From positions 2,688,001 through 2,752,000 of the forward strand of contig CM000208.1 in NCBI GenBank assembly GCA_000002445.1: DNA of 64,000 nucleotides. The letters are read 5' to 3'. The DNA is from Trypanosoma brucei (lineage: Eukaryota). Positions 4,913 through 48,135 of the stretch are shown here, one piece after another (positions within the stretch are counted from its first letter, which is position 1; every line of letters starts with the position of its first letter). The notes beneath the pieces were generated by a model. The model made no database searches. It worked only from the letters and a program-made list of their open reading frames with translations, and was not told where the DNA came from. The translations under genes and the position numbers were made by a program.

Positions 4913-7152
4913 TATACATACATATTATTGCTACCTGCTTCGAGCGGTGACGAACTGACATCAAGTTTATATGATTGGTCGTTTTGGTTGGATAGAACCG
5001 TTCCCATTTGTGGGCAAGACATTGCTTCTGCGGGGGGGGGGGGTGGGTGGCGGTCAACAAACCTGGGAGGCTATTAGAGATTTGAACAAAGACACAAGGA
5101 ATAATCTGAAACGTGAGAATGTGTCCGTCATAATCATTTGTCGCTCGGGGACGCCTACCCTTTTTATGTTATTTCTTTTTCTCTGTAGCTTTTGCTTTGG
5201 TGGAAACAAAAACGCTAACACAAGATTAAGTATAAATGTACTTTTTTATCAGCTTGTAGACGTCGAATATTTCCTTGTTTTTGCTGATTTCTGTTATGGG
5301 TGCCACTATGCATCAACAACTGAGAAGGAGAGGATGCTGGACATAGTGCTGGCGGAGGAGGGCAAATACGGCAGCGACGAAAGACAGCCATATTATCGTT
5401 GTTGGGCATTTTCATTCTCCCTTGAAGCGTGGATGAGATGGTTGACGTGGCGTGTGCCGACGGTTGAAGGGAAAGTACGCTTTGGCGCATCATAAGCGAC
5501 CACAATTTGTAGGGCATGGGTCCACTTGCGTGGTGCCCCGATGAGCTTTTGCTTTATGCGTGTGAGTTTGGTGGTGCGCTTGTTGCTTGTAGATATAGCG
5601 TTTCTGTATCGGTCGAGTATTTGTGTTTGTGCGTGTAGGGGGTGTGGAGGGTGTCAGCTCCTGGCTGAAGCCAATGCTCTAAGCAACCGAACGCATGCGC
5701 ACACGCATATACACACTCAGGGATCCCTTAAAAAAAGGTATGCAGTCCGAAGGCATTGATATAGTAGACGGTGGACAGGGGGTTGGTAAACTGCAGTTCA
5801 CAAAGAAAACAACGGGGAAAATGCTTTTTATCTTGCGTATGATTCTAGAACGTGTTATTTTTCAGTGGACAAGCTGACGTAGGATCTCGGGCAGCATGTT
5901 AACGCCCGCGGGTAAATGCAATGGACAAGCGAGGAAAGTGACGATTCAAGAATGCAAGGGGATTCTGCTTAATACCCAACGGTGTCCGCGCCGGAGACTA
6001 CTTGTTTCTGACAGAGGTGCTGCTCCTTTCCTACTACAACACCAAACATCCTTAAACTCTTCAGGAAAATGCACTATTTTTGCGTGAGGCACTTATAGCC
6101 ACTTTCATAGTACATCGGTGAATGAGTGACTACATATATCTTTCGATAGTGGTGGGAAGGATTTTCTAAGCCTGTTTTTTTATTTTCGGAACTTTCATAG
6201 TTTTTCTGTTCGATCGCGACCTTTCAAGCTGGGTCAAAAACTTTACGAGTTTTTTTTCTTTTTCGTAAGAGTGACCTGTTTTTAGCGAGGAGTAAAAACG
6301 GTCATTGCGATCGTGGTTTGTGTGATATAGGAAACCCAAGACCACTGCGATATTTTAGTCACCTTTGCCGTGTTAGCGCTTCGACGGTGTGGTGCATCAC
6401 TGCCGTTGCGGCAGGTGTGAGGGTATGATTTTTTTACCTTTCAAACGATGTATGTGCGTCCTTGGTATTATGCCGCCCTTCCTACCATTTTGGTTTGGTT
6501 TCCCGTCCGTTACCGAGTAGGCGCCGGTGGTAGGTTAATGTGGTGGCAAGGAAAGACTACCCGTTACAAAAGTGTGAGTTGGTGAAGGGTAATAACACCC
6601 TGTTAAATCCATCGATGCACTCATTTCCATTAGGTGTGGTCTTTTAGAGGGGTAGGGAGAGCCTTTAAATGTTTTATTTGCTTATTTTTGTTCGTGCTCC
6701 GGCAACCAGTTTTCCGCATGTTCCTTCTGGAGGTGTTTACACGGGCCGGTAATCATGTAGCCTCTTGCGTCTGGAAAACATTTGCATGTTTGGGATTGGT
6801 TCCTGTTTTGTTTTGTTTTGTTTTGAGCTTCTTGGTCGTCCGCATTGTTGTTTGGGGTACCCGGGTGCTGTAAGTGGAGGAGTTTTGGTATTCCTTCCGT
6901 GTATGATGGGTTATATTTACCTGGGGTTTTGTGGGTGTACAGCAGTATCCCATGTCGGTGCACTGGGTATCACTGCGGTTATGCACGCCAGGGAAAGCCT
7001 TTTTCTTCTTCAGCTGGATATTTTCATAATGTGTTGCTGCGCATAAGGACTGAGCTTGGAGGAAACAAATGTTGGGTATCTGTGTATTGTGAACTTTTTT
7101 GTCTTCTGCTGTGTTCATACATCACCTGTGGTGTTCCATTAGGAGGGGTGTG

Positions 7153-11200: not shown

Positions 11201-12412
11201 CATGAATCGGCGTCGCTATCTTCGGCAGAACAAGGATCACCGTCTGAATTATCCTGCACTCCTGAGCAGTACGACGGTTTACACCTGGCATCCAAGCGGT
11301 TGCGGAAGGAAATTGCCGAGCTTGAGCGTCAAATGGACGTTGAGGGAGATGAGGATGACATGACGCTTATGGCGGTTCTCGCGGTTTCGAGGGCCGAACT
11401 GGAGGAGTTAGATGAATTTATCCGCATGGTACAACTTAAGGAACCGTGGGCCACAGCGCGTGACAGAGCTCGAAGGGAAGAGGAGATGAAGGAGGCGAAA
11501 AGCAGGGGTGACTCGCCCTGCGATATACAGGAAAAAATAAGTGACATCCGCTTCCAGATTACCTTGATGGAGAAGCGGCTTCAGCATGCCACGGAGCGTC
11601 GGGTGATAACGAAACTCGAACAGGGAATCATCAATGGGAGACGAGAAATTAATCGTCTGCGGGTGGAACAGGACCGGCTGCGCCGTTCGGGGAGGCCGGC
11701 GGATGCTGGTGGCATTCAGGTTCCCCCCTTCGTAAGTGTTGCAGAAGCATTGGCTGAGGCCGAGGCCGAAGATATCGAAGCTTCCGCCGTTGCCGACGAC
11801 GATCTCTATCGTGAGGCACTGGAGGCTCCCGTTGGGGCGCATGGATCTGATAATGTTGCTTCTGTTGGTGGAATGAACCGCCCGCAACCGGGTAATGTTT
11901 TGGACCCCCTTGTCCCCGCCGATCATGTTACGGACTCTGCTAATGACAACTCTGCTGAGTGTGCGGAAAGCACGCCACAAGAGGATGAGAGGGAGCTGCA
12001 GCAGCTAATGGTTCGGTTGAAGGCAGTGTTGGCAGATATCAAGCAACTGGAAGGACGCCTTGACGAGCAGGAAGATGGGGATGATGCCGAAGCCATCGCC
12101 AAATCTCTCATTCAGTTACAAGGGAAGTTGCAGCAGCTCCTCGAAATGCGCGAAACGCTTAGGAAGCGCACGGAACGGGTGTCTTCGAGAGGGAAATCAG
12201 ATTTTCGGGGGCCTGCTTTTGACGAATCTGAGGAGGCGACTACGACGCCAACGCCAGCTGTTTTGACCCCGTTGTCCGGTCGGCCAATTTCAGGTTATGC
12301 ATTATATAAAGACGTCGGAGCCGTGCGTTCAGGTTCAGAAGAGTTTAAGCAAAGCGGTGCCGCGGGAGGGAAGAAGCAACAGAGGGTGAAGTCAAGAAAG
12401 GTCCGCAACTAA
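8252..12412 (+). CDS. large (1386 aa) hypothetical protein with highly charged E/R/K-rich coiled-coil region
   Basis: Track start 8162 is GTG; first ATG at 8252. Uninterrupted ORF. Residues encoded at ~10.6-11.1 kb form an ER/K-rich helix (REKEEALMEEERCRLEKERKDEAIKRMRREEAEARARAMEHELLRKHEERLKLL). Confidence 0.6.
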   Translation: MMRRMTATAVVPLIPRAQSRATSCFTGNGDNRNGNKAGRNDVSKGPYGGRPYDDIVSSVDVDGERLRGSVSCTLKKAQTGPSRSKYVLSDARGGVLRECGTKTEASNELGRENLREENKKEERMLSKIKKKCDVISQPKRKTFILTSNFSNRYAIENDNKNHSDNDEDVTRIYSYNEVEQAGNKCRPRQGDATFSKSSPSPTVGVNSVVKREMMRERRGKEKHCGDSAVLSDAGAVADRGPGWGNATSSENDKITEMQRYEGYVGKRSSGSIVKDADESHLKDNGYEEDDDEFAASSAVSVDKFRRVKNHPFFDDLLRRIEKNAARQRQQIRAAGHYNLDAVNLCVRPLLQLTDYPFTLAELHQMAPFIYPNLLKGSLSDLKACRRLHLFHSADTDVILDWSVEDFLRRRYESIHLSWEPVKIVMMRFGWDHEIMSDRDCLLYLSKFMEYIELAQLELSAGDEKPSAVAIEDPVRTAEQRPIPVSRLLVRRKPSEETEPSVTEAIRLMGTPALWSPSRSKKARTVDKESVEGVFECIQREAADVDGDEGSRLRHGVEVVAPLQQARNPSGRSIRDFSLGKRRATMINDDVPKSFGIAGGKPFDGDNHIYTPESYEALSNAYHKKKVEASLLRRRLLATSSIDCASELQEKLFQVQKDLSRLKDRLEKMRQLRRMEGGDVERHASVEIEGDDHGANARWMERKNCPIPKVAAAGVGVGDEISAGDEPVSVFTGEFEANQLNTSQQRGKNCNVAGDNFEEEGFTTLPVCVAEKGTKRVVQARLSDGREIQSLSSAAIQLKREIELAREKHRREEESLMKKMDEALSTLVKIEMTMKNLAEREKEEALMEEERCRLEKERKDEAIKRMRREEAEARARAMEHELLRKHEERLKLLNMRREKAQQAQRDAELELERQKKEEQEALEAEAELQRKLDEAKSMIWSDKAAGEMPVKDQVVHAVERECTPVFSGDADGEGCCRVASEEMKHESASLSSAEQGSPSELSCTPEQYDGLHLASKRLRKEIAELERQMDVEGDEDDMTLMAVLAVSRAELEELDEFIRMVQLKEPWATARDRARREEEMKEAKSRGDSPCDIQEKISDIRFQITLMEKRLQHATERRVITKLEQGIINGRREINRLRVEQDRLRRSGRPADAGGIQVPPFVSVAEALAEAEAEDIEASAVADDDLYREALEAPVGAHGSDNVASVGGMNRPQPGNVLDPLVPADHVTDSANDNSAECAESTPQEDERELQQLMVRLKAVLADIKQLEGRLDEQEDGDDAEAIAKSLIQLQGKLQQLLEMRETLRKRTERVSSRGKSDFRGPAFDESEEATTTPTPAVLTPLSGRPISGYALYKDVGAVRSGSEEFKQSGAAGGKKQQRVKSRKVRN

Positions 12413-13791
12413 TATGATTGTGCCAGCCGAGGAAGAATGGTCTCCCTGTCACACGAGGGTCAATGTTACATAATAGTGACCAAAAGGTAGATCCTCCGTT
12501 GGGTTCGCGCACGCCTGCGCCCGTATTACGGCCACTGTGTGTGTGTGCGCTGCCAACGCTAAGAGAGAATTGAGGACACAAGTAACGTTAACGTTAGAGG
12601 CAGGGCAGGTGCGTGTAGGTATAAGGTCCAAATAGTTGCAGGTGACAACGTGCGTGCTTTGGTAAGTATACTGCCTTCTTTCCCCCTCACTTTGTTTCTT
12701 TCTCCAGCACTGCTTTGAGAGGGGGGGGGGCGAGGGCACGTGGGATCTGCTGGCCACGACAGTGGGGCCAGTGATGAAGTTGGAGATGGAGGCAAAATTT
12801 GAGTGATTTTACCTAGTGGGCGTTGAGCATAGACAAATGAGCAGTTAAATGCTGTCGTTAATTTCATACTGCTTAGAATAGAACAATTGTATTGGCACCC
12901 CCCTCTAATGTGAACAATCGCGGCGTTGTGGAAGTGACGACGTATGGGAGTCGTGCCTATCCCCAAGGCAGCTTTCCCCCGCTCCTTTGCTCAACTGGGG
13001 GTCACAAGCACTGTCGGTGCTGTTTGAGGGTAGCAATTCTCCGTTTACTTGAGCATTTTTTCCCCTCTCCGCTGTGCACGGGTAAATAGGGGATGGGAGG
13101 TGGTGTAAAAGAAAAGAAAGTGCGTGCGTCCCGATGCATCTACAATGAACACGGAGGTATAGGAGGCAGTGACTGTGTTTTGGAAGGTACAGTAACAAAG
13201 AGCCAAAACATAAGCAATCAATTGAAAAAGGATGCGTTGCCCTGGGGGAAACGGGTCGTGTGTCGGTTCGTCATAGAGTACACACTTTATCCTTCTTTTA
13301 ATCGTTATCTTCTGTAGTGCAATCGTAGGGTGTGAGGTTGGAAGGGAGGAGGGATGAAAGCTAGGTAAAGTTCCCGGAACTACCGACGTGTGAGCACAGA
13401 GAGAGCGTTCTACGAGACATAGAACGAGCTGAAAGCACGATAAGTTTTGTTTGAGATTTTGTTAGTGCTCGCTAACGCTTCCGAACCGCGAGTAGTGTGG
13501 GTTCATCACGTTTGCCTGAGCTTTCCCCGTTCTCAGGGCTGTGGAGGGGCATCTTCCGTGTCGTTTACATTTTTTTCTTTCGTGAGTGCGTGTGTCTGCA
13601 CTTTTTTTAAACCGACTTCTGCTCCGTTTACTCCATTCGTGAAAAAGTCCTTGCCTGGTGCTCCGGGGCGTTTTCCCCTCGTATATCACCTTCCGGCCTC
13701 GAATTGGCTACCGGTGGTGCACGCTGAAGGATTTGTCGTTATTGCCGATCCATGCCCTTTTTTTTTCGTGAGGTCAAAAAAATAGTACGTT

Positions 13792-14253
13792 ATGTTTCGA
13801 GTGACTGGCTTGCAACTTAAGAACCCTGTGGTGTTCAAGCAGGGCCAGGGCATGTTTTCCCATCAGCTCAAGCGGCTGCTGCAGAAGAAGTCGATACACC
13901 GTTACAATTGGGATCCTTTACCGATGTACGATCCTCGCAAGCTCGTGCATGCTAGTCGTCATATGGATGTTGAAACGTGGCGCGAGGTACCCGACCCACA
14001 TTGGGATGAACGGTCTTATTTGGTACCGGATCAGATGTTTTACAACATTCCCGTGCCTCCAGAGTATAAAGATGCGTATTGGTGGAGGGAGCTGCAGGCG
14101 CGGCGCGTGCAGTGCCCAGTGGAGTGGGTGAGTCATCGCATGTACAACAAAGGGGACAGACAACGATACGACTTCCAGGATTTGGCGTTCCGCAAGAAGT
14201 TCGAGTTTTCATATGAAGAGGTAGTGAAGAACGCAAAGGATATGCGAAGTTAG
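13792..14253 (+). CDS. hypothetical protein, possible mitochondrial (MFR.. N-terminus), W-rich
   Basis: ATG ORF of 153 aa. The N-terminus MFRVTG resembles kinetoplastid mitochondrial presequences. Confidence 0.5.
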   Translation: MFRVTGLQLKNPVVFKQGQGMFSHQLKRLLQKKSIHRYNWDPLPMYDPRKLVHASRHMDVETWREVPDPHWDERSYLVPDQMFYNIPVPPEYKDAYWWRELQARRVQCPVEWVSHRMYNKGDRQRYDFQDLAFRKKFEFSYEEVVKNAKDMRS

Positions 14254-14919
14254 TGCTGAGCAATTGGTGTGTACTAGTTCACTTCGCGCCGGTCCGGCGA
14301 GTCTCTCCCTTTACTTTTGCTTGCCGTCGCAAAGGATGGGGAGGGATGGTGGTGGTGCGGTGTAGGAGTGGTAAACGTTCTTTTGTTACGTATCGCTGCG
14401 AGTGCACGTGCCTTTGCTTACGTGATACTATTGGGTCTCTTTTGTTTTGTTGTGCTGAGTGTTTTCGATCTGTTGGCGTCCTCTGTGTGTGCATTTTACT
14501 CCCCATATTGTCTGTGCCTGCTCACCTTCACATGTTAATGTGCGTGTTTGAGTGTAATATTCTTACCTGACAATGTTATCGCGCTGTTGTGCACATAACC
14601 AGTGACCTCATACGAAAAACAAATCCTCTTACTGGCGCTCTTCCACCATGCCTTTGCTTCTCCCTCGCACCTCATCGTCTCTCAGAGCCACTTCCACTAC
14701 GATATCACCCCACGTCGTTGTTCTGATCCGGCAACCGGTGCAGGAGGACGGTAGAAGGGGAACAGGGAGAAAAGGGGCCAGAAACGAGGCAGAAGTGGGT
14801 GCGGGGTGTTCTGCTCTAGAGGAGGTGCTGTATATTACGTCTAATAGGTTGAAGCACAGAGTTGTTCCGCAGGTGGGGGGAAAAAACGGCGTTGGCAACA
14901 GGACGGGACAGAGTACACT

Positions 14920-17309: not shown

Positions 17310-17347
<38 letters not shown>

Positions 17348-17348
17348 G
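17310..17348. repeat. (GT)n microsatellite immediately upstream of the 17378 gene
   Basis: gtgtgt x ~19, directly visible. Confidence 0.95.
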
Positions 17349-23920: not shown

Positions 23921-26101
23921 ATGCGAGGCCGATTCTTGTCATCGACTTTTCGGCTGGGATTATATCGAACGAAGCAGCATGTGCGTGCCGGTTCGAAGGG
24001 TCAAGAAGATCAGTTCTCCTCTCGCGCATCACATATCATAAGCAGACGCGTTCGTGCTGTGGACTGGCTTTATATGGATCCTGTTGAAAAGTGGACAATA
24101 CTCGTCGACCTTGGAAGGAGGGCTCCGATGTTGCTTGAGGACGCCCTCTCTGGAGCCCCTCCAGGAGGGGAGCAAGGTGTCAAGGCAGAGATGAATCTAT
24201 TAGGAAGGTTGCTGTGTTATTGCCCTTGTGTTTCCAGGAATGGAAAGCGTGCGGCTGCAGCTGTGAGTGAGGAGCACCTTTGTGGTGTGTCTTCGCAGAA
24301 GCACAGAGGTTTGATTGATGGGCTACCTTACTGCGTCCGCCTGCAACTGTGTTTGTCGTTTCTTATGTGGGTACGATCACTCCGAGACGTACAGAACACA
24401 CTTGCACACCTACGAATGCCATTTGCCACCACGCGTCGCTTTAAACGTGGAGTTGTTGCCGATGTTTTCCCAACTTGTCTATCGGAGATGTGCGTTGATC
24501 CCTTTACTACTGTAAGTCTGATGATGGACGAGTCCCTCAACAGCACCGCCGAGCAGGTGCCCGCCCCTCATGCGTGGCGTCCTGACGGTTACTACGAGGA
24601 CGAGGAGGAACGGAGAGCTTGGAGCTTCGCATCGAGATTAGGAAAGAGGAGGTCCTCCTGTATTCCTAGCGGTGGTGGTACGGCCGACAGTGGTGTTGCT
24701 AGTGGTCAGTCACGTCGCCGGCGTTCGTGTGTGGGTCTCACCGGTCGGGATATGGTAATGCTTCGCGAAATACAGGGAATGCGTCCAGTTCCCAGTGATG
24801 ATGATGTGCTGGCAGGCCGATCGGGTCTACATGTTGGCCGGCTGCGGTTGCAGGCCCCTCCTACAAACCTGGGACAGTCGTACACAAATGGCCTGTCGGC
24901 TTCATCATATGCGCTAAGCGACGCTCAGCGAGGTGCACTCCCTTCCCCGCTTGCGGTTGACAATGAGGAGGATGAAGTTTACCATCATAACATTCATCGT
25001 GGTGAGGGATGTCCACTAGACGAAAGTGGTCAGTTGGAGTGCACGCCTATTCACATACCCGTTTCGCTTGCTGCGGACAGAGTCGTCATCACGCGTCACT
25101 GTGCTATGGCACACGCTGCTATATTGACATCACTTTTTGTCGAGGGACGAACCGTACAGTTTACCACAAACCATCCACTACTGCTAGATTACGTGTCTTT
25201 CCTTTTTGCTGAGCTTGTTGAGGCTGGGTGGGTAAGTGCGGCGATATGTGAGGAAAGCCTGCGTCCATATGTGCCTTTGTGGGCGGTAGCGGAGAGCGTG
25301 CTGGTATTGGTCCCACCGAAGGATACCGAGGTATGTCGTACCCATGACGTCCGGGGCACGGCGGACATGATCGTTCAGTGCGCCCCATGCTCCGTTCTTA
25401 CCGAGGATGTAGGACAAATCTCTGGGAGCCGCTTTTACCGAGATTTGAGAGAAGAGGTACAGAGGCTACAAGCCACTTTAATTTCTCGAGGAAATGATGC
25501 GAGTTGGCGGGTGTCGTGGGTTCCGGTTTCGAAATCAACATCACTTTATGCAACTCCTCAGAAAGTCGATTGCGGTGATGCGGGGGAGTTCCAGACTTCA
25601 GTGAACGAGGTACTCCGCCACTGTCACACAGTCACGTTTCTTTACACACCGCGCAACTGTAGGTTTACCCCTCGTGAGATGGAGGGCTGGTGGTGGAACG
25701 GCCTCCCCAGAAGCGTGCTTGTGGTGGGTGTGAACAGTCACCCCTTGGACATTGTTTACTTCTTTCCACAGGCACCATTTTTACATAAGAAGGTTGGTAA
25801 CGCGTTCCGGTACCGTGCCGTACGGCGTGTGCTTTTAAGAAAGAACGTACACGGCGGGAGGGAGGGCATTGTGCGCAACTGGCTATACCGCAGTCTTTGG
25901 TGTCGTGGGTTGGCACGCACGGGCCTTCAGGGACAATTGGCCGTGAAGGACAAGATGCGTGTATTGCCCGGCGGGGATGTTACCAAAGGTGGTGAGCATG
26001 CTGTAGACGCTCTGAAGTGGGAGCGTACGGTTGATTACCTAGCCAACCCTGGAAAGATGACGTGGATGGCTCTCGTGGCTGCGAAGCTGCTTCATATTTA
26101 A
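23921..26101 (+). CDS. hypothetical protein (726 aa)
   Basis: Long ATG-initiated ORF; no family recognised. Confidence 0.55.
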   Translation: MRGRFLSSTFRLGLYRTKQHVRAGSKGQEDQFSSRASHIISRRVRAVDWLYMDPVEKWTILVDLGRRAPMLLEDALSGAPPGGEQGVKAEMNLLGRLLCYCPCVSRNGKRAAAAVSEEHLCGVSSQKHRGLIDGLPYCVRLQLCLSFLMWVRSLRDVQNTLAHLRMPFATTRRFKRGVVADVFPTCLSEMCVDPFTTVSLMMDESLNSTAEQVPAPHAWRPDGYYEDEEERRAWSFASRLGKRRSSCIPSGGGTADSGVASGQSRRRRSCVGLTGRDMVMLREIQGMRPVPSDDDVLAGRSGLHVGRLRLQAPPTNLGQSYTNGLSASSYALSDAQRGALPSPLAVDNEEDEVYHHNIHRGEGCPLDESGQLECTPIHIPVSLAADRVVITRHCAMAHAAILTSLFVEGRTVQFTTNHPLLLDYVSFLFAELVEAGWVSAAICEESLRPYVPLWAVAESVLVLVPPKDTEVCRTHDVRGTADMIVQCAPCSVLTEDVGQISGSRFYRDLREEVQRLQATLISRGNDASWRVSWVPVSKSTSLYATPQKVDCGDAGEFQTSVNEVLRHCHTVTFLYTPRNCRFTPREMEGWWWNGLPRSVLVVGVNSHPLDIVYFFPQAPFLHKKVGNAFRYRAVRRVLLRKNVHGGREGIVRNWLYRSLWCRGLARTGLQGQLAVKDKMRVLPGGDVTKGGEHAVDALKWERTVDYLANPGKMTWMALVAAKLLHI

Positions 26102-27192
26102 CGCTACATGTGCTTTGCCAAAGGAAGGGAGGGAGTAACTGCTCTCAGACCTCCATTTTCCCCTTGTTCTTTTTTTTTCCGTGTGTACGTTATCTGTGGT
26201 CCTTGGAGTCTAGTACTATTCCATATTGTGTCTGTGTAAGTGTGTAGTGGGGTATCGTACACGTTATATTCTATATATCGCCCTTCATAACATTTTTAGG
26301 CACTTATTGTATATATTGCATTGTGTTTGTACGGTGCCGCTTTCTGCATTTCACTTACTGGCAGTTACACTGGCCAGCTTTGCGCTGAAGGCACCCCGAC
26401 TCACCAGACATTCAATCCACAAGTCTCCGTCGGGCCTGCCAATTCTGCGGTACCTTCTGAACCTCTGCTGTGTTAACTTAAGCGTGGTGGCGGTCAAATC
26501 TACTTATCCCTTTACATCGGTTGGGCAAACATCGCGTTCACAGAAAGAATGAAAGTTTCTACTGGTAAGTGTGGTGTCATCAGCAGGGCCCTGCTCAGTG
26601 GAAGCGGTGTAAGGTCCCCACCGAAAGGAAGCTCGTAGATGTGCATGGAGACCCCTGGCGGCACCGAGAAAAAAAATGTACTTTCTATGCCGAGCGCGTG
26701 CTTTGCAGAGCGTCCGTTTTTTAAAGATTTGAACACGGCAGGCACCGCTTCAACTCTATCAAGTTAACGTGGAGTAGGTATTCTTTCGGCAACCGTACGC
26801 TTCAGCGTGTCCCCTTTAAGAACAGACTGCATATACGGCGTTGTCGGTTGGGCCAGTGGCAAATTTTATCCCTGCAGCCCTATCTCGCAACTCCTAGAAC
26901 CCCTATTTGTTACATTGCATTAAATATGTAGCCTTAACATGACGAGTGAGGAGCGCTATATCTTCTTCACCAAGTGCAGAATTAACCGTCTGAGTACTTT
27001 ATCACTTTGAAGTGAAGCGCAACCTGATTTACCGGTTACATGCTGTTTCCTCCCTTTGTTTCCACTTAAGCCTCCTCTCTCGTATACCCGGAAGTTTGTT
27101 ACGTAGCCGTTGCTCAGGGAGTTCTGTACGCCGCTGAGTGGTATTGCTCGCTTAGTGGAGCGATTTACTCCCCAGATTTGTTATGTGAGGAG

Positions 27193-27270
27193 TGATCGCT
27201 GATGAAGTTGATATGGTCCGTGTTTCAGATCGCTGAATTGACGCACAATAGCATATCTTCTGAGTTCTGC
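27193..27270 (+). ncRNA. candidate C/D box snoRNA (U18-like), copy 1
   Basis: C box UGAUGA 27200-27205, D' CUGA, D box CUGA 27260-27263. Guide GGUCCGUGUUUCA (27215-27227) is a perfect 13-nt antisense to the conserved LSU rRNA block UGAAACACGGACC. Confidence 0.5.
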
Positions 27271-27409
27271 ACTGCCCCCCTGTACTATCGCTGTTTTGAA
27301 TGCTGTTGTCAGGTGTTGTTAGTTGGGCCAGTGGCAATTTTTATTCATTCGGCCCTCTCCCACAACTCCTAGAACCCCTATTTGTTACATTGCATTAAAT
27401 ATGTAGCCT

Positions 27410-27475
27410 TAATATGACGAGTGAGGAGCGCTATATCTTCTCCACCAAGTGCAGAATTAACCGTCTGAGTACTTT
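27410..27475 (+). ncRNA. second, weaker C/D-like module, copy 2 (also at -475 and +475)
   Basis: Degenerate C box AUGACGA (27414-27420) and CUGA (27465-27468) about 50 nt apart. Shares GUGAGGAG..AUAUCUUCU..CUGAGU with the U18-like module. Confidence 0.25.
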
Positions 27476-27589
27476 ATCACTTTGAAGTGAAGCGCAACCT
27501 GATTTACCGGTTACATGCTGTTTCCTCCCTTTGTTTCCACTTAAGCCTCCTCTCTCGTATACCCGGAAGTTTGTTACGTAGCCGTTGCT

Positions 27590-27654
27590 CAGGGAGTTCT
27601 GTACGCCGCTGAGTGGTATTGCTCGCTTAGTGGAGCGATTTACTCCCCAGATTT
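27590..27654 (+). ncRNA. candidate H/ACA-like (AGA-box) snoRNA, copy 2 (also at -475 and +475)
   Basis: Single hairpin closed by a 6-bp stem GGGAGU(27592-27597)/ACUCCC(27642-27647) with inner stem UCGC/GCGA, followed by c-AGA-uuu (AGA 27649-27651). Trypanosomatid H/ACA-like RNAs are single hairpins with an AGA box. Confidence 0.35.
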
Positions 27655-27667
27655 GTTATGTGAGGAG

Positions 27668-27745
27668 TGATCGCTGATGAAGTTGATATGGTCCGTGTTT
27701 CAGATCGCTGAATTGACGCACAATAGCATATCTTCTGAGTTCTGC
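27668..27745 (+). ncRNA. candidate C/D box snoRNA (U18-like), copy 2
   Basis: C box 27675-27680, guide 27690-27702, D box 27735-27738. About 70 nt from C box to D box, typical of trypanosomatid C/D snoRNAs. Confidence 0.5.
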
Positions 27746-28142
27746 ACTGCCCCCCTGTACTATCGCTGTTTTGAATGCTGTTGTCAGGTGTTGTTAGTTG
27801 GGCCAGTGGCAATTTTTATTCATTCGGCCCTCTCCCACAACTCCTAGAACCCCTATTTGTTACATTGCATTAAATATGTAGCCTTAACATGACGAGTGAG
27901 GAGCGCTATATCTTCTCCACCAAGTGCAGAATTAACCGTCTGAGTACTTTATCACTTTGAAGTGAAGCGCAACCTGATTTACCGGTTACATGCTGTTTCC
28001 TCCCTTTGTTTCCACTTAAGCCTCCTCTCTCGTATACCCGGAAGTTTGTTACGTAGCCGTTGCTCAGGGAGTTCTGTACGCCGCTGAGTGGTATTGCTCG
28101 CTTAGTGGAGCGATTTACTCCCCAGATTTGTTATGTGAGGAG

Positions 28143-28220
28143 TGATCGCTGATGAAGTTGATATGGTCCGTGTTTCAGATCGCTGAATTGACGCACAATA
28201 GCATATCTTCTGAGTTCTGC
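28143..28220 (+). ncRNA. candidate C/D box snoRNA (U18-like), copy 3
   Basis: C box 28150-28155, guide 28165-28177, D box 28210-28213. Confidence 0.5.
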
Positions 28221-28544
28221 ACTGCCCCCCTGTACTATCGCTGTTTTGAATGCTGTTGTCAGGTGTTGTCGGTTGGGCCAGTGGCAACTTTTATCCCTGC
28301 AGCCCTATCTCGCAACCCCTAGAGCCTGTAGTCGTTAGGGTTGTTGTGACGGTGTTTTAACTTTGTGGATGTGTGATTCTTCATGTGGTGGCGGTCGTAG
28401 TTGACTTTTTGGTCTTGCCTTGAGCTATTGATATCGAGCGCCCTGTTATAGTCTTTGACCGGCACAGTTTACTTAAATTTCTTTTGTTTAATATGAATGC
28501 TAAGTAGGGAATAGCGAGTCTGCGCCCTTTGGCCCTTCTCGGAC

Positions 28545-29546
28545 ATGTCATTGTTTGATGATGATGATGATGTGGGGTCTTCAGTTTCGTCCACTGAGGG
28601 CGATCTTAACGAGAGTGTTGTACCCATGAGCACAGTAAGGACGGGCGGGGTTTGTGTGAAGACTGAAGCTAAGACTAATGGACCTCGCACAGGACTTGAG
28701 GATGTGCACCGGTTTACGCTTAGCGTTGAGGAAACGCAGCGGGCAGAGGAGCGGAGGCGTGTAGAGGCGAGTAAAAGACTTTTACTATCAACTGACGGTG
28801 GCTTAATTCCGAATTCGTGCGGCGGTCCTTCATCTCAGGAGCGGAGTCGGTTCGGGTCCTCTATAGCGGAGGCTCTCCGTCTTCGTAGTGAAACACGGGA
28901 GAGGGTGCTACTACAACGCATTCTGAGGCAGCGGCGAGAAGAGGAGGGCAATGAAGAGTTGGCGGAGAAGGATATGGAGGTTGGTGTATTTATCACTCCG
29001 CAGTACCTTAGTGCTCTCAAGCGTCAGAGAAGTACGCGAGCGACATCCCCCGGAGGTCTTGCAAAGCAAACAGAAAACACGGAGGATATGGACCCACTGG
29101 AGTTGTATGTGCAAGAGTTGGAGGAAAGACGTCGGGTGGTGGGAAAAAAAGATCATGACTCGTCTGATGTTGGCACCAACAGGAACGATGGGGGTAGGGA
29201 CCAAGATATGGGGCTGAGAGTGCACTCGGCACAGGTTGTTTCAGGAAATAAGCAACCGGAACATGTGGAACGAAGTGGTGTGACGGGCATTCCTTGCGGC
29301 CACGATGTTGTCTATTCTGTGAAAGCAAGTAGTGGCGCGTGGGTCCCCACTGGTACTAACGGCGCTGTAATTGATGTTTCCGGCGCGGCCGCACCAGCAT
29401 CTCCGAGTCCGACGGCGAACTCCGCGACCCCCCAGGAGGCGCTGCAGGAGGTTAGATGGAGACGGCAAAAGCCGCGTGCGGACCGTTCGTTTATAGAGTC
29501 CGCAGCCACACGGTTTAATAGACGATCTATGGACCGTTTTGTGTAA
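28545..29546 (+). CDS. hypothetical protein (333 aa), acidic N-terminus
   Basis: ORF on the coding strand beginning MSLFDDDDD. By my hand count the ATG may sit 1 nt off the track coordinate; track coordinates used. Confidence 0.5.
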   Translation: MSLFDDDDDVGSSVSSTEGDLNESVVPMSTVRTGGVCVKTEAKTNGPRTGLEDVHRFTLSVEETQRAEERRRVEASKRLLLSTDGGLIPNSCGGPSSQERSRFGSSIAEALRLRSETRERVLLQRILRQRREEEGNEELAEKDMEVGVFITPQYLSALKRQRSTRATSPGGLAKQTENTEDMDPLELYVQELEERRRVVGKKDHDSSDVGTNRNDGGRDQDMGLRVHSAQVVSGNKQPEHVERSGVTGIPCGHDVVYSVKASSGAWVPTGTNGAVIDVSGAAAPASPSPTANSATPQEALQEVRWRRQKPRADRSFIESAATRFNRRSMDRFV

Positions 29547-33431: not shown

Positions 33432-34139
33432 ATGTATATTGACAGCCTCTTAAATAAATCGTGTATGATGTTTGTTGAATGTTTCTGCTGGTTCAAGCGT
33501 TAACAACAAAAATAGAGGTAAGAAGGAAGATCATAGGGTATGGGAGGTGCGTCGACTTTTTTGTTTGTTTGTTTGTGATAGGAACTTCTGAGAGGGGGGG
33601 GGATGACGTATGCGTTCTACGATACTTTTTTTTTTTGTGTCTGTGTCTGTGTGTGTGTGTGTGTGTGTGGGAAATTTGTTAACATTGGCTCGAGCGGGGA
33701 AGGGCAATTATAGCGGAGGAAAGAAGTTTTAAATGACGCACGACTCCGTTTGCGTTGGTGCTGGTCGGCTCGTAGAGATGTGACTGTGTCACCTTCCTGT
33801 AAGACTCAAAGTGGGTTAAATCCCTTAGAAATAAAAAAGAAATATAATGAGTGTTGTGAAGGAGTACCCGCATGGAAATGTTTATTAGTGAGACACCATA
33901 TTGTGGAAAGGAAATAAAGTTGTTCAGGTGGTTGAAGGGTTGGGTTCGATATCGTTCCATATAAATAGATCTTTTGAGTAACAAGCAAAGGAGAGTGAGA
34001 GACAGGGAAAGAGGAAGAGTTTGGCATTATATGAATGTGTAGCGAATTCCGTGGTTATCTTGTGAGTAGGAGAGATAAAACGAGAGATAAATGATGTGCT
34101 TGCGCTTGTGGTTGCGGTTGCTTGTTTGTATGTTTCTGC

Positions 34140-39027: not shown

Positions 39028-39058
<31 letters not shown>
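39028..39058. repeat. (TA)n microsatellite
   Basis: Directly visible. Confidence 0.95.

Positions 39059-48104: not shown

Positions 48105-48135
<31 letters not shown>

Follow-up and report, generated by a model that had tools for sequence, protein, structure and literature searches.

The segment at positions 27588-27654 (+ strand) of the 64,000-nucleotide stretch of Trypanosoma brucei DNA analysed here, hereafter the window, is very probably the gene for TB10Cs2H2, a trypanosomatid single-hairpin, AGA-box H/ACA-like snoRNA that guides pseudouridylation of LSU-α rRNA at Ψ1009. The identification draws on family membership, on the fold of the RNA, on its conservation with covariation and on the complementarity between guide and target; from these we infer that TB10Cs2H2 is the snoRNA responsible for Ψ1009. 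A scan of the whole window against Rfam at curated thresholds returned seven matches, all of them within a 475-bp tandem array: three to RF01863 ("Trypanosomatid snoRNA TB10Cs2H2", H/ACA box) and four to RF01525. The three RF01863 matches (copy 1 at 27113-27179, copy 2 at 27588-27654 and copy 3 at 28063-28129, all on the + strand) are mutually identical and each reached 103.4 bits, for a gathering score of 50. Copy 2, the one singled out by an earlier sequence-only reading of this DNA, aligned to model positions 1-67 of 67 with every base equal to the consensus (E = 2.5e-22). Since the match spans 27588-27654, the hairpin drawn at 27590-27654 in that reading is the catalogued copy 2 without its first two nucleotides. 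The RF01863 entry (T. brucei chromosome 10, cluster 2, H/ACA gene 2) has the same sequence, the same structure and the same clustering with TB10Cs2H1 (RF01525); no difference from 27588-27654 was found, and the window copy is either the type sequence or indistinguishable from it. Rfam and the literature on T. brucei snoRNAs and pseudouridines already cover the gene and its cluster, as well as its expression and target site. It was Liang et al. (2005) who first catalogued TB10Cs2H2 in T. brucei, as credited in the table of Chikne et al. (2016), and in our literature search the name was absent from main texts and present in supplements only.

The three copies belong to the tandem snoRNA gene array of cluster TB10Cs2 (26836-28326, + strand), which comprises 3.1 units of 475 bp with the gene order H1, C/D, H2, C/D and a fourth H1 at its end. 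TRF described the same repeat with a period of 475, 3.1 copies and 97% matches over 26840-28323. The array lies between the ORFs 23921-26101 and 28545-29546, all in the same orientation, and the window's ORFs of at least 250 aa are on the + strand in 18 cases out of 19. An array placed between same-strand ORFs is the usual layout of a trypanosome snoRNA cluster within a polycistronic unit. Four flanking ORFs match, exactly and over their full length, proteins of T. brucei brucei TREU927, T. b. gambiense DAL972 and T. equiperdum, and the longest ORFs open across the array itself reach 61 aa and are derived from the repeat. Dinucleotide microsatellites of the types (AT)n, (GT)n, (TG)n and (TA)n were also seen between ORFs of the window, at 2540-2581, 17310-17348, 33636-33669, 39028-39058 and 48105-48132.

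The sequence-only reading had placed the hairpin in every repeat unit, immediately upstream of a C/D snoRNA, and the array has precisely this arrangement, with one hairpin per 475-bp unit in three identical copies and a C/D-box RNA beginning 14 nt downstream in each unit. The C/D-box snoRNA that follows copy 2 (27669-27742, + strand) is SNORD18-like at a sub-threshold score of 27.4 bits (gathering score 41), and a box search located its C box (UGAUGA, 27675-27680), D' box (CUGA, 27708-27711) and D box (CUGA, 27735-27738); further copies lie at 27194-27267 and 28144-28217 (+ strand). A second C/D-like gene of the unit (27410-27472, + strand, ends approximate) has a C box AUGACGA at 27414-27420 and a D box CUGA at 27465-27468. 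It is repeated one period to either side and matched no Rfam family. The motif AUAUCUUCU is common to this gene and to the C/D gene downstream of H2. The C/D genes published for the cluster are TB10Cs2C1, assigned to SSU Um36, and TB10Cs2C2, assigned to LSU-α Am746/Cm747 (PMC9283944).

RF01525 occurs within the same 475-bp unit as RF01863, in two forms. Variant A of TB10Cs2H1 occupies the outer positions of the array (26836-26901 and 28261-28326, + strand, 84 and 78 bits), variant B the inner ones (27311-27376 and 27786-27851, + strand, 55.9 bits), for a gathering score of 35. Units 1 and 2 differ at 14 places, 12 of which are within this 66-nt gene, while H2 and both C/D genes are nearly invariant between units. 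The pocket strands read ..UGUCGGUU.. / CUAUCUCGCAAC in the outer copies and ..UGUUAGUU.. / CUCUCCCACAAC in the inner ones, where the apical loop is also different. The targets published for TB10Cs2H1 are LSU-β Ψ490, the unmodified U1229, U4 Ψ43 and U6 Ψ33 (Chikne 2016 and Rajan 2023 tables), and these might be split between the isoforms.

Folding of copy 2 on the + strand gave a minimum free energy of -26.0 kcal/mol, compared to an average of -17.4 for shuffled sequences (z = -2.76), and 2 of 200 shuffles folded as well. The fold of the reverse complement, on the - strand, was unremarkable (z = -1.5). The stems of TB10Cs2H2 are formed with pair probabilities of 0.92-1.00. Stem I pairs GGGAGU (27592-27597) with ACUCCC (27642-27647), with probabilities of 0.97-1.00, and is the 6-bp closing stem that the sequence-only reading had drawn. 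It encloses the 5' pocket strand UCUGUACG (27598-27605), the 5' strand of stem II CCGCUGAGUG (27606-27615), an apical loop of 8 nt whose sequence varies among species (27616-27623), the 3' strand of stem II CGCUUAGUGG (27624-27633) and the 3' pocket strand AGCGAUUU (27634-27641), all on the + strand. Stem II has 10 bp, three of which are G·U. The tail had been described correctly as well: C27648 is followed by the AGA box (27649-27651), 1 nt past stem I and 15 nt past the base of stem II, and then by UUU (27652-27654), which brings the molecule to its modelled 3' end at AGA + 3, an end that is set by the boundary of the Rfam model.

One element of the earlier drawing did not survive. An upper stem pairing UCGC (27623-27626) with GCGA (27635-27638) had a pair probability of 0.00 and gave -10.6 kcal/mol, versus -25.6 kcal/mol for the Rfam/centroid structure, and is ruled out on both counts; the true stem II is formed by 27606-27615 and 27624-27633. 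The GCGA in question lies within the single-stranded 3' pocket strand that pairs with the rRNA, and is guide rather than stem.

The anatomy was compared with the criteria of the class in PMC2613932 (Psiscan consensus), which specify a stem I of 5-8 bp that is usually perfect, a stem II perfectly paired beside the pocket, guide arms of 3-9 bp, an apical loop no shorter than 5 nt, a Ψ located 13-16 nt from the AGA box, and an AGA box that follows stem I after 1-3 nt and precedes the 3' end by 3 nt. TB10Cs2H2, with its perfect 6-bp stem I, a pocket of 8+8 nt, a 10-bp stem II and an 8-nt loop, agrees with the sequence-level rules of this consensus; its AGA box comes 1 nt after stem I and, by the boundary of the Rfam model, 3 nt before the predicted 3' end. 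It shares with the trypanosomatid H/ACA-like class (e.g. SLA1/TB11Cs2H1; PMC2613932) the single hairpin, the AGA in place of ACA, the clustering in tandem repeats with C/D genes and the distance of 13-16 nt between Ψ and box; no sequence-level rule is broken, stem II of T. brucei having three G·U pairs. The earlier proposal of a trypanosomatid H/ACA-like single-hairpin guide lying beside a C/D snoRNA in a repeated cluster is upheld by the RF01863 score of 103.4 bits and by the published listing of this RNA as the Ψ1009 guide.

Canonical eukaryotic box H/ACA RNAs (yeast snR, human SNORA) have the same bipartite pocket, leave the target U and one further nucleotide unpaired at about 14-16 nt upstream of the box, and use Cbf5/dyskerin as catalyst. 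TB10Cs2H2 differs from them in having one hairpin instead of two, no H box, AGA instead of ACA and a length of ~67 nt instead of ~130 nt, and in deriving from a polycistronic cluster and not from an intron. A canonical two-hairpin architecture with an H box (ANANNA) hinge was considered and rejected: the RNA is a single 67-nt hairpin with an AGA box, and what follows 14 nt downstream is a C/D RNA rather than a second hairpin. As in the single-hairpin H/ACA RNAs of Archaea and Euglena, one guide hairpin suffices. In archaeal H/ACA RNAs, the upper stem has a K-turn or K-loop that serves L7Ae, and the box is ACA.

The pairing of the pocket with rRNA was scanned over LSU-α 901-1061 (161 nt), as taken from the per-nucleotide table in the supplement of PMC10662448. 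The sequence-only reading had anticipated bipartite complementarity flanking a U in rRNA, and such complementarity is present exactly at LSU-α U1009, the only bipartite site within the 161 nt scanned. The 3' pocket strand GCGAUUU (RNA G48-U54, window G27635-U27641) forms seven Watson-Crick pairs with LSU-α A1002-C1008, G27635 facing C1008 and U27641 facing A1002. On the other side of the target, the 5' pocket strand UGUAC (RNA U13-C17, window U27600-C27604) pairs with G1011-G1015, U27600 facing G1015 and C27604 facing G1011, through four Watson-Crick pairs and one G·U. This leaves U1009 and C1010 unpaired in the rRNA, and G18 and A47 unpaired in the snoRNA at the base of stem II, A47 (A27634) lying opposite the target. 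The A of the AGA box is 15 nt away from the base of stem II, within the 13-16 nt rule for Ψ.

How often such a site would arise by chance depends on how G·U pairs are scored. When any G·U was allowed, a site of at least 12 bp occurred in 9.5% of random 6.5-kb sequences; when at most one G·U was allowed, as observed, the figure fell to 0.4%. The lenient criterion scored G·U as full pairs. Because 9.5% of random sequences offer a site when G·U pairs are free, the pairing statistic is by itself only moderately strong. The best site does, in addition, coincide with one of the ~70 mapped Ψ residues. TB10Cs2H2 is assigned to LSU-α Ψ1009, pre-rRNA position 6298, in the supplements of Rajan et al. 2023 (PMC10662448). 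The modification has been seen there by Ψ-seq, HydraPsiSeq, nanopore sequencing and LC-MS (fragment CΨCG, 63-68% occupancy), and its HydraPsiSeq score went from 0.87 to 0.61 upon CBF5 silencing, a partial drop of 30% (PMC10662448). In the table of Chikne et al. 2016, reads for TB10Cs2H2 number 9484 and 3577 in procyclic libraries and 14196 and 3755 in bloodstream ones, with a target in "LSU5". The published assignment of this putative guide to Ψ1009 is itself drawn from complementarity, and our literature search found no snoRNA-specific depletion or knockout tying TB10Cs2H2 to Ψ1009.

On the rRNA side, AAAUCG (LSU-α A1002-G1007) and CGAUUU (C1014-U1019) are self-complementary and flank the target U1009, which therefore probably sits in the loop of a small rRNA hairpin (AAAUCGCUCGUACGAUUU). 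It also follows from this arrangement that the 3' guide GCGAUUU of the snoRNA mimics the rRNA's own pairing partner. To reach its target, the guide would need to open the rRNA helix around U1009. Cm1006, guided by TB9Cs5C1, falls within the guide-target duplex (PMC10662448).

Orthologues of the gene were sought in trypanosomatids at syntenic loci, found through the orthologues of the upstream 726-aa gene. At its gathering threshold, Rfam recognised H1 in T. cruzi (14 copies with a 486-bp period), T. vivax, T. grayi and L. donovani (14 copies with a 638-bp period), and RF01863 detected no H2 in the five syntenic loci scanned. H2 orthologues were recovered by a search with the guide motif, followed by a covariance model built from five species. 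The model scored 82.3 bits in T. cruzi (locus L001, 15940-16005, with 13 more copies), 82.7 bits in T. grayi (L004, 15028-15093), 73.8 bits in T. vivax (L002, 12626-12691) and 65.2 and 58.9 bits in T. theileri (L003, 15538-15603 and 15289-15354); these scores are partly circular, because sequences of these four species built the model. Independent of model building are the second T. theileri copy and the matches in T. melophagium, which are weak (L007, 13340-13405 and 13959-14024; 23 bits, E = 0.013). The RF01863 family looks too narrowly seeded, since its gathering score misses clear syntenic Trypanosoma orthologues that reach 65-83 bits with our own model.

The alignment of five species shows covariation in stem II, where 90% of the cells are paired and three pairs are changed on both sides, compared to 39-46% of paired cells in controls with slid partners. 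For stem I the pairing is good in T. brucei and, with G·U-compatible changes, in T. vivax, and poor in the T. cruzi clade (63% overall, 5 sequences). The AGA box is invariant in all orthologues and the apical loop drifts. T. cruzi and T. grayi have the 3' guide strand unchanged; T. vivax departs from it by 1 nt, at the distal base, and T. theileri by a C-to-U change that is compatible with wobble pairing. GUAC of the 5' guide keeps its position in T. vivax; in the T. cruzi clade it stands 4 nt farther away from stem II, and the changed 5' guide there is UACAUGCG. Searches with filters off found no H2 in the L. donovani array (L005, 12511-22000), where H1 is kept, nor in the intergenic region of Leptomonas pyrrhocoris (L008, 12553-14218), all scores being noise of at most 5.8 bits. 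In these two organisms H2 may be located elsewhere in the genome, may have diverged past detection or may have been lost.

The surroundings of the gene vary among the same loci. The cluster has 3 units in the window, at least 14 in T. cruzi (L001, 15447-22052) and L. donovani, 1-2 in T. grayi and T. theileri and 1 in T. vivax. The 726-aa orthologue and the snoRNA array are separated by a gene of ~745-767 aa in T. cruzi, T. grayi, T. conorhini and T. theileri (L001, L003, L004 and L006, at about 12400-14700, versus 26101-26836 in the window); the contig of T. conorhini stops short of the snoRNA cluster. This gene has a zf-MYND match in T. cruzi, T. grayi and T. conorhini, and only a faint SET match in T. 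theileri. In the window and in T. vivax, the array comes directly after the 726-aa gene, a local rearrangement of synteny.

Three other readings of the segment were weighed against a guide for Ψ1009. That it is no gene at all, and that the hairpin is a chance structure or a processing or spacer element of the C/D repeat, is effectively refuted, and we leave it next to no probability. It could appeal to a folding z-score that is not extreme when taken alone (-2.76), and to the fact that three identical copies result from the tandem repeat itself and do not count as separate evidence. Against it stand the 103 bits of the Rfam match, the reads reported from two life-cycle stages, and the orthologues in T. 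vivax, T. cruzi, T. grayi, T. theileri and, weakly, T. melophagium, with their compensatory changes in stem II and their invariant AGA. Nor is there a notable overlap with a coding sequence, the longest ORF being the repeat-derived one of 61 aa. A more serious objection comes from the AGA-like class described by Myslyuk et al. 2008, whose members have the same structural features and are not destabilised by CBF5 knockdown. TB10Cs2H2 could in principle be such a stable, CBF5-independent, non-guide AGA-box hairpin whose match to U1009 is a coincidence; the lenient chance test, at 9.5%, leaves room for one, and the CBF5 dependence of TB10Cs2H2 itself was not found in the literature searched. However, a mapped, CBF5-sensitive Ψ is exactly where the best bipartite site lies, and the strict test puts chance at 0.4%. 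The 3' guide strand has moreover been kept across Trypanosoma while the apical loop drifts, and published tables place TB10Cs2H2 among the H/ACA guides. With this evidence on the other side, we hold a non-guide RNA to be very improbable.

The alternative to which we grant most is that TB10Cs2H2 is a genuine guide with a main or additional substrate other than LSU-α U1009, such as a spliceosomal snRNA, the 7SL RNA or another snoRNA. Dual targets are known for several T. brucei H/ACA RNAs (Chikne 2016 and Rajan 2022 tables; PMC9283944), and the many tabulated H/ACA RNAs with a second snRNA or ncRNA target include the neighbour TB10Cs2H1. The rRNA scan covered 161 nt, and the difference of the 5' guide in the T. 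cruzi clade could also be read in favour of another partner. The table of Chikne et al., however, lists no scaRNA target for TB10Cs2H2, and the 7 + 5 bp formed at Ψ1009 have the correct H/ACA geometry. On balance we regard another main or additional substrate as unlikely, and a guide for Ψ1009 remains our preferred reading.

For this guide we propose the following mode of action. The array would be transcribed within a polycistronic precursor of the sense strand, from which the snoRNAs would be cut out, as is established for trypanosome clusters. The mature RNA is predicted to consist of the 6-bp stem I, the pocket of 8+8 nt, the 10-bp stem II and the 8-nt apical loop, with the AGA box 1 nt after stem I and 3 nt from its 3' end. 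Like other RNAs of its class, it would presumably assemble with CBF5, NHP2, NOP10 and GAR1. The pocket would then grip LSU-α on both sides of the target, with GCGAUUU on 1002-1008 and UGUAC on 1011-1015. At the base of stem II, ~15 nt away from the AGA, U1009 and C1010 would be left without partners, and CBF5 would isomerise U1009 to Ψ.

A reading of the sequence alone was able to recognise a trypanosomatid H/ACA-like guide RNA, a result of little wider importance. Its practical value is one of annotation, as exact stems, pocket strands and the target duplex can now be given for the three TB10Cs2H2 copies. As to the biology of the family, it is possible, if rather doubtful, that the guide has been remodelled or lost in some trypanosomatid lineages. 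If so, the guide could have co-evolved with an rRNA hairpin loop that varies (in T. brucei it reads AAAUCG-CUCGUA-CGAUUU) or have been retargeted; alternatively, it could be that the modification equivalent to Ψ1009 has been lost outside the salivarian trypanosomes.
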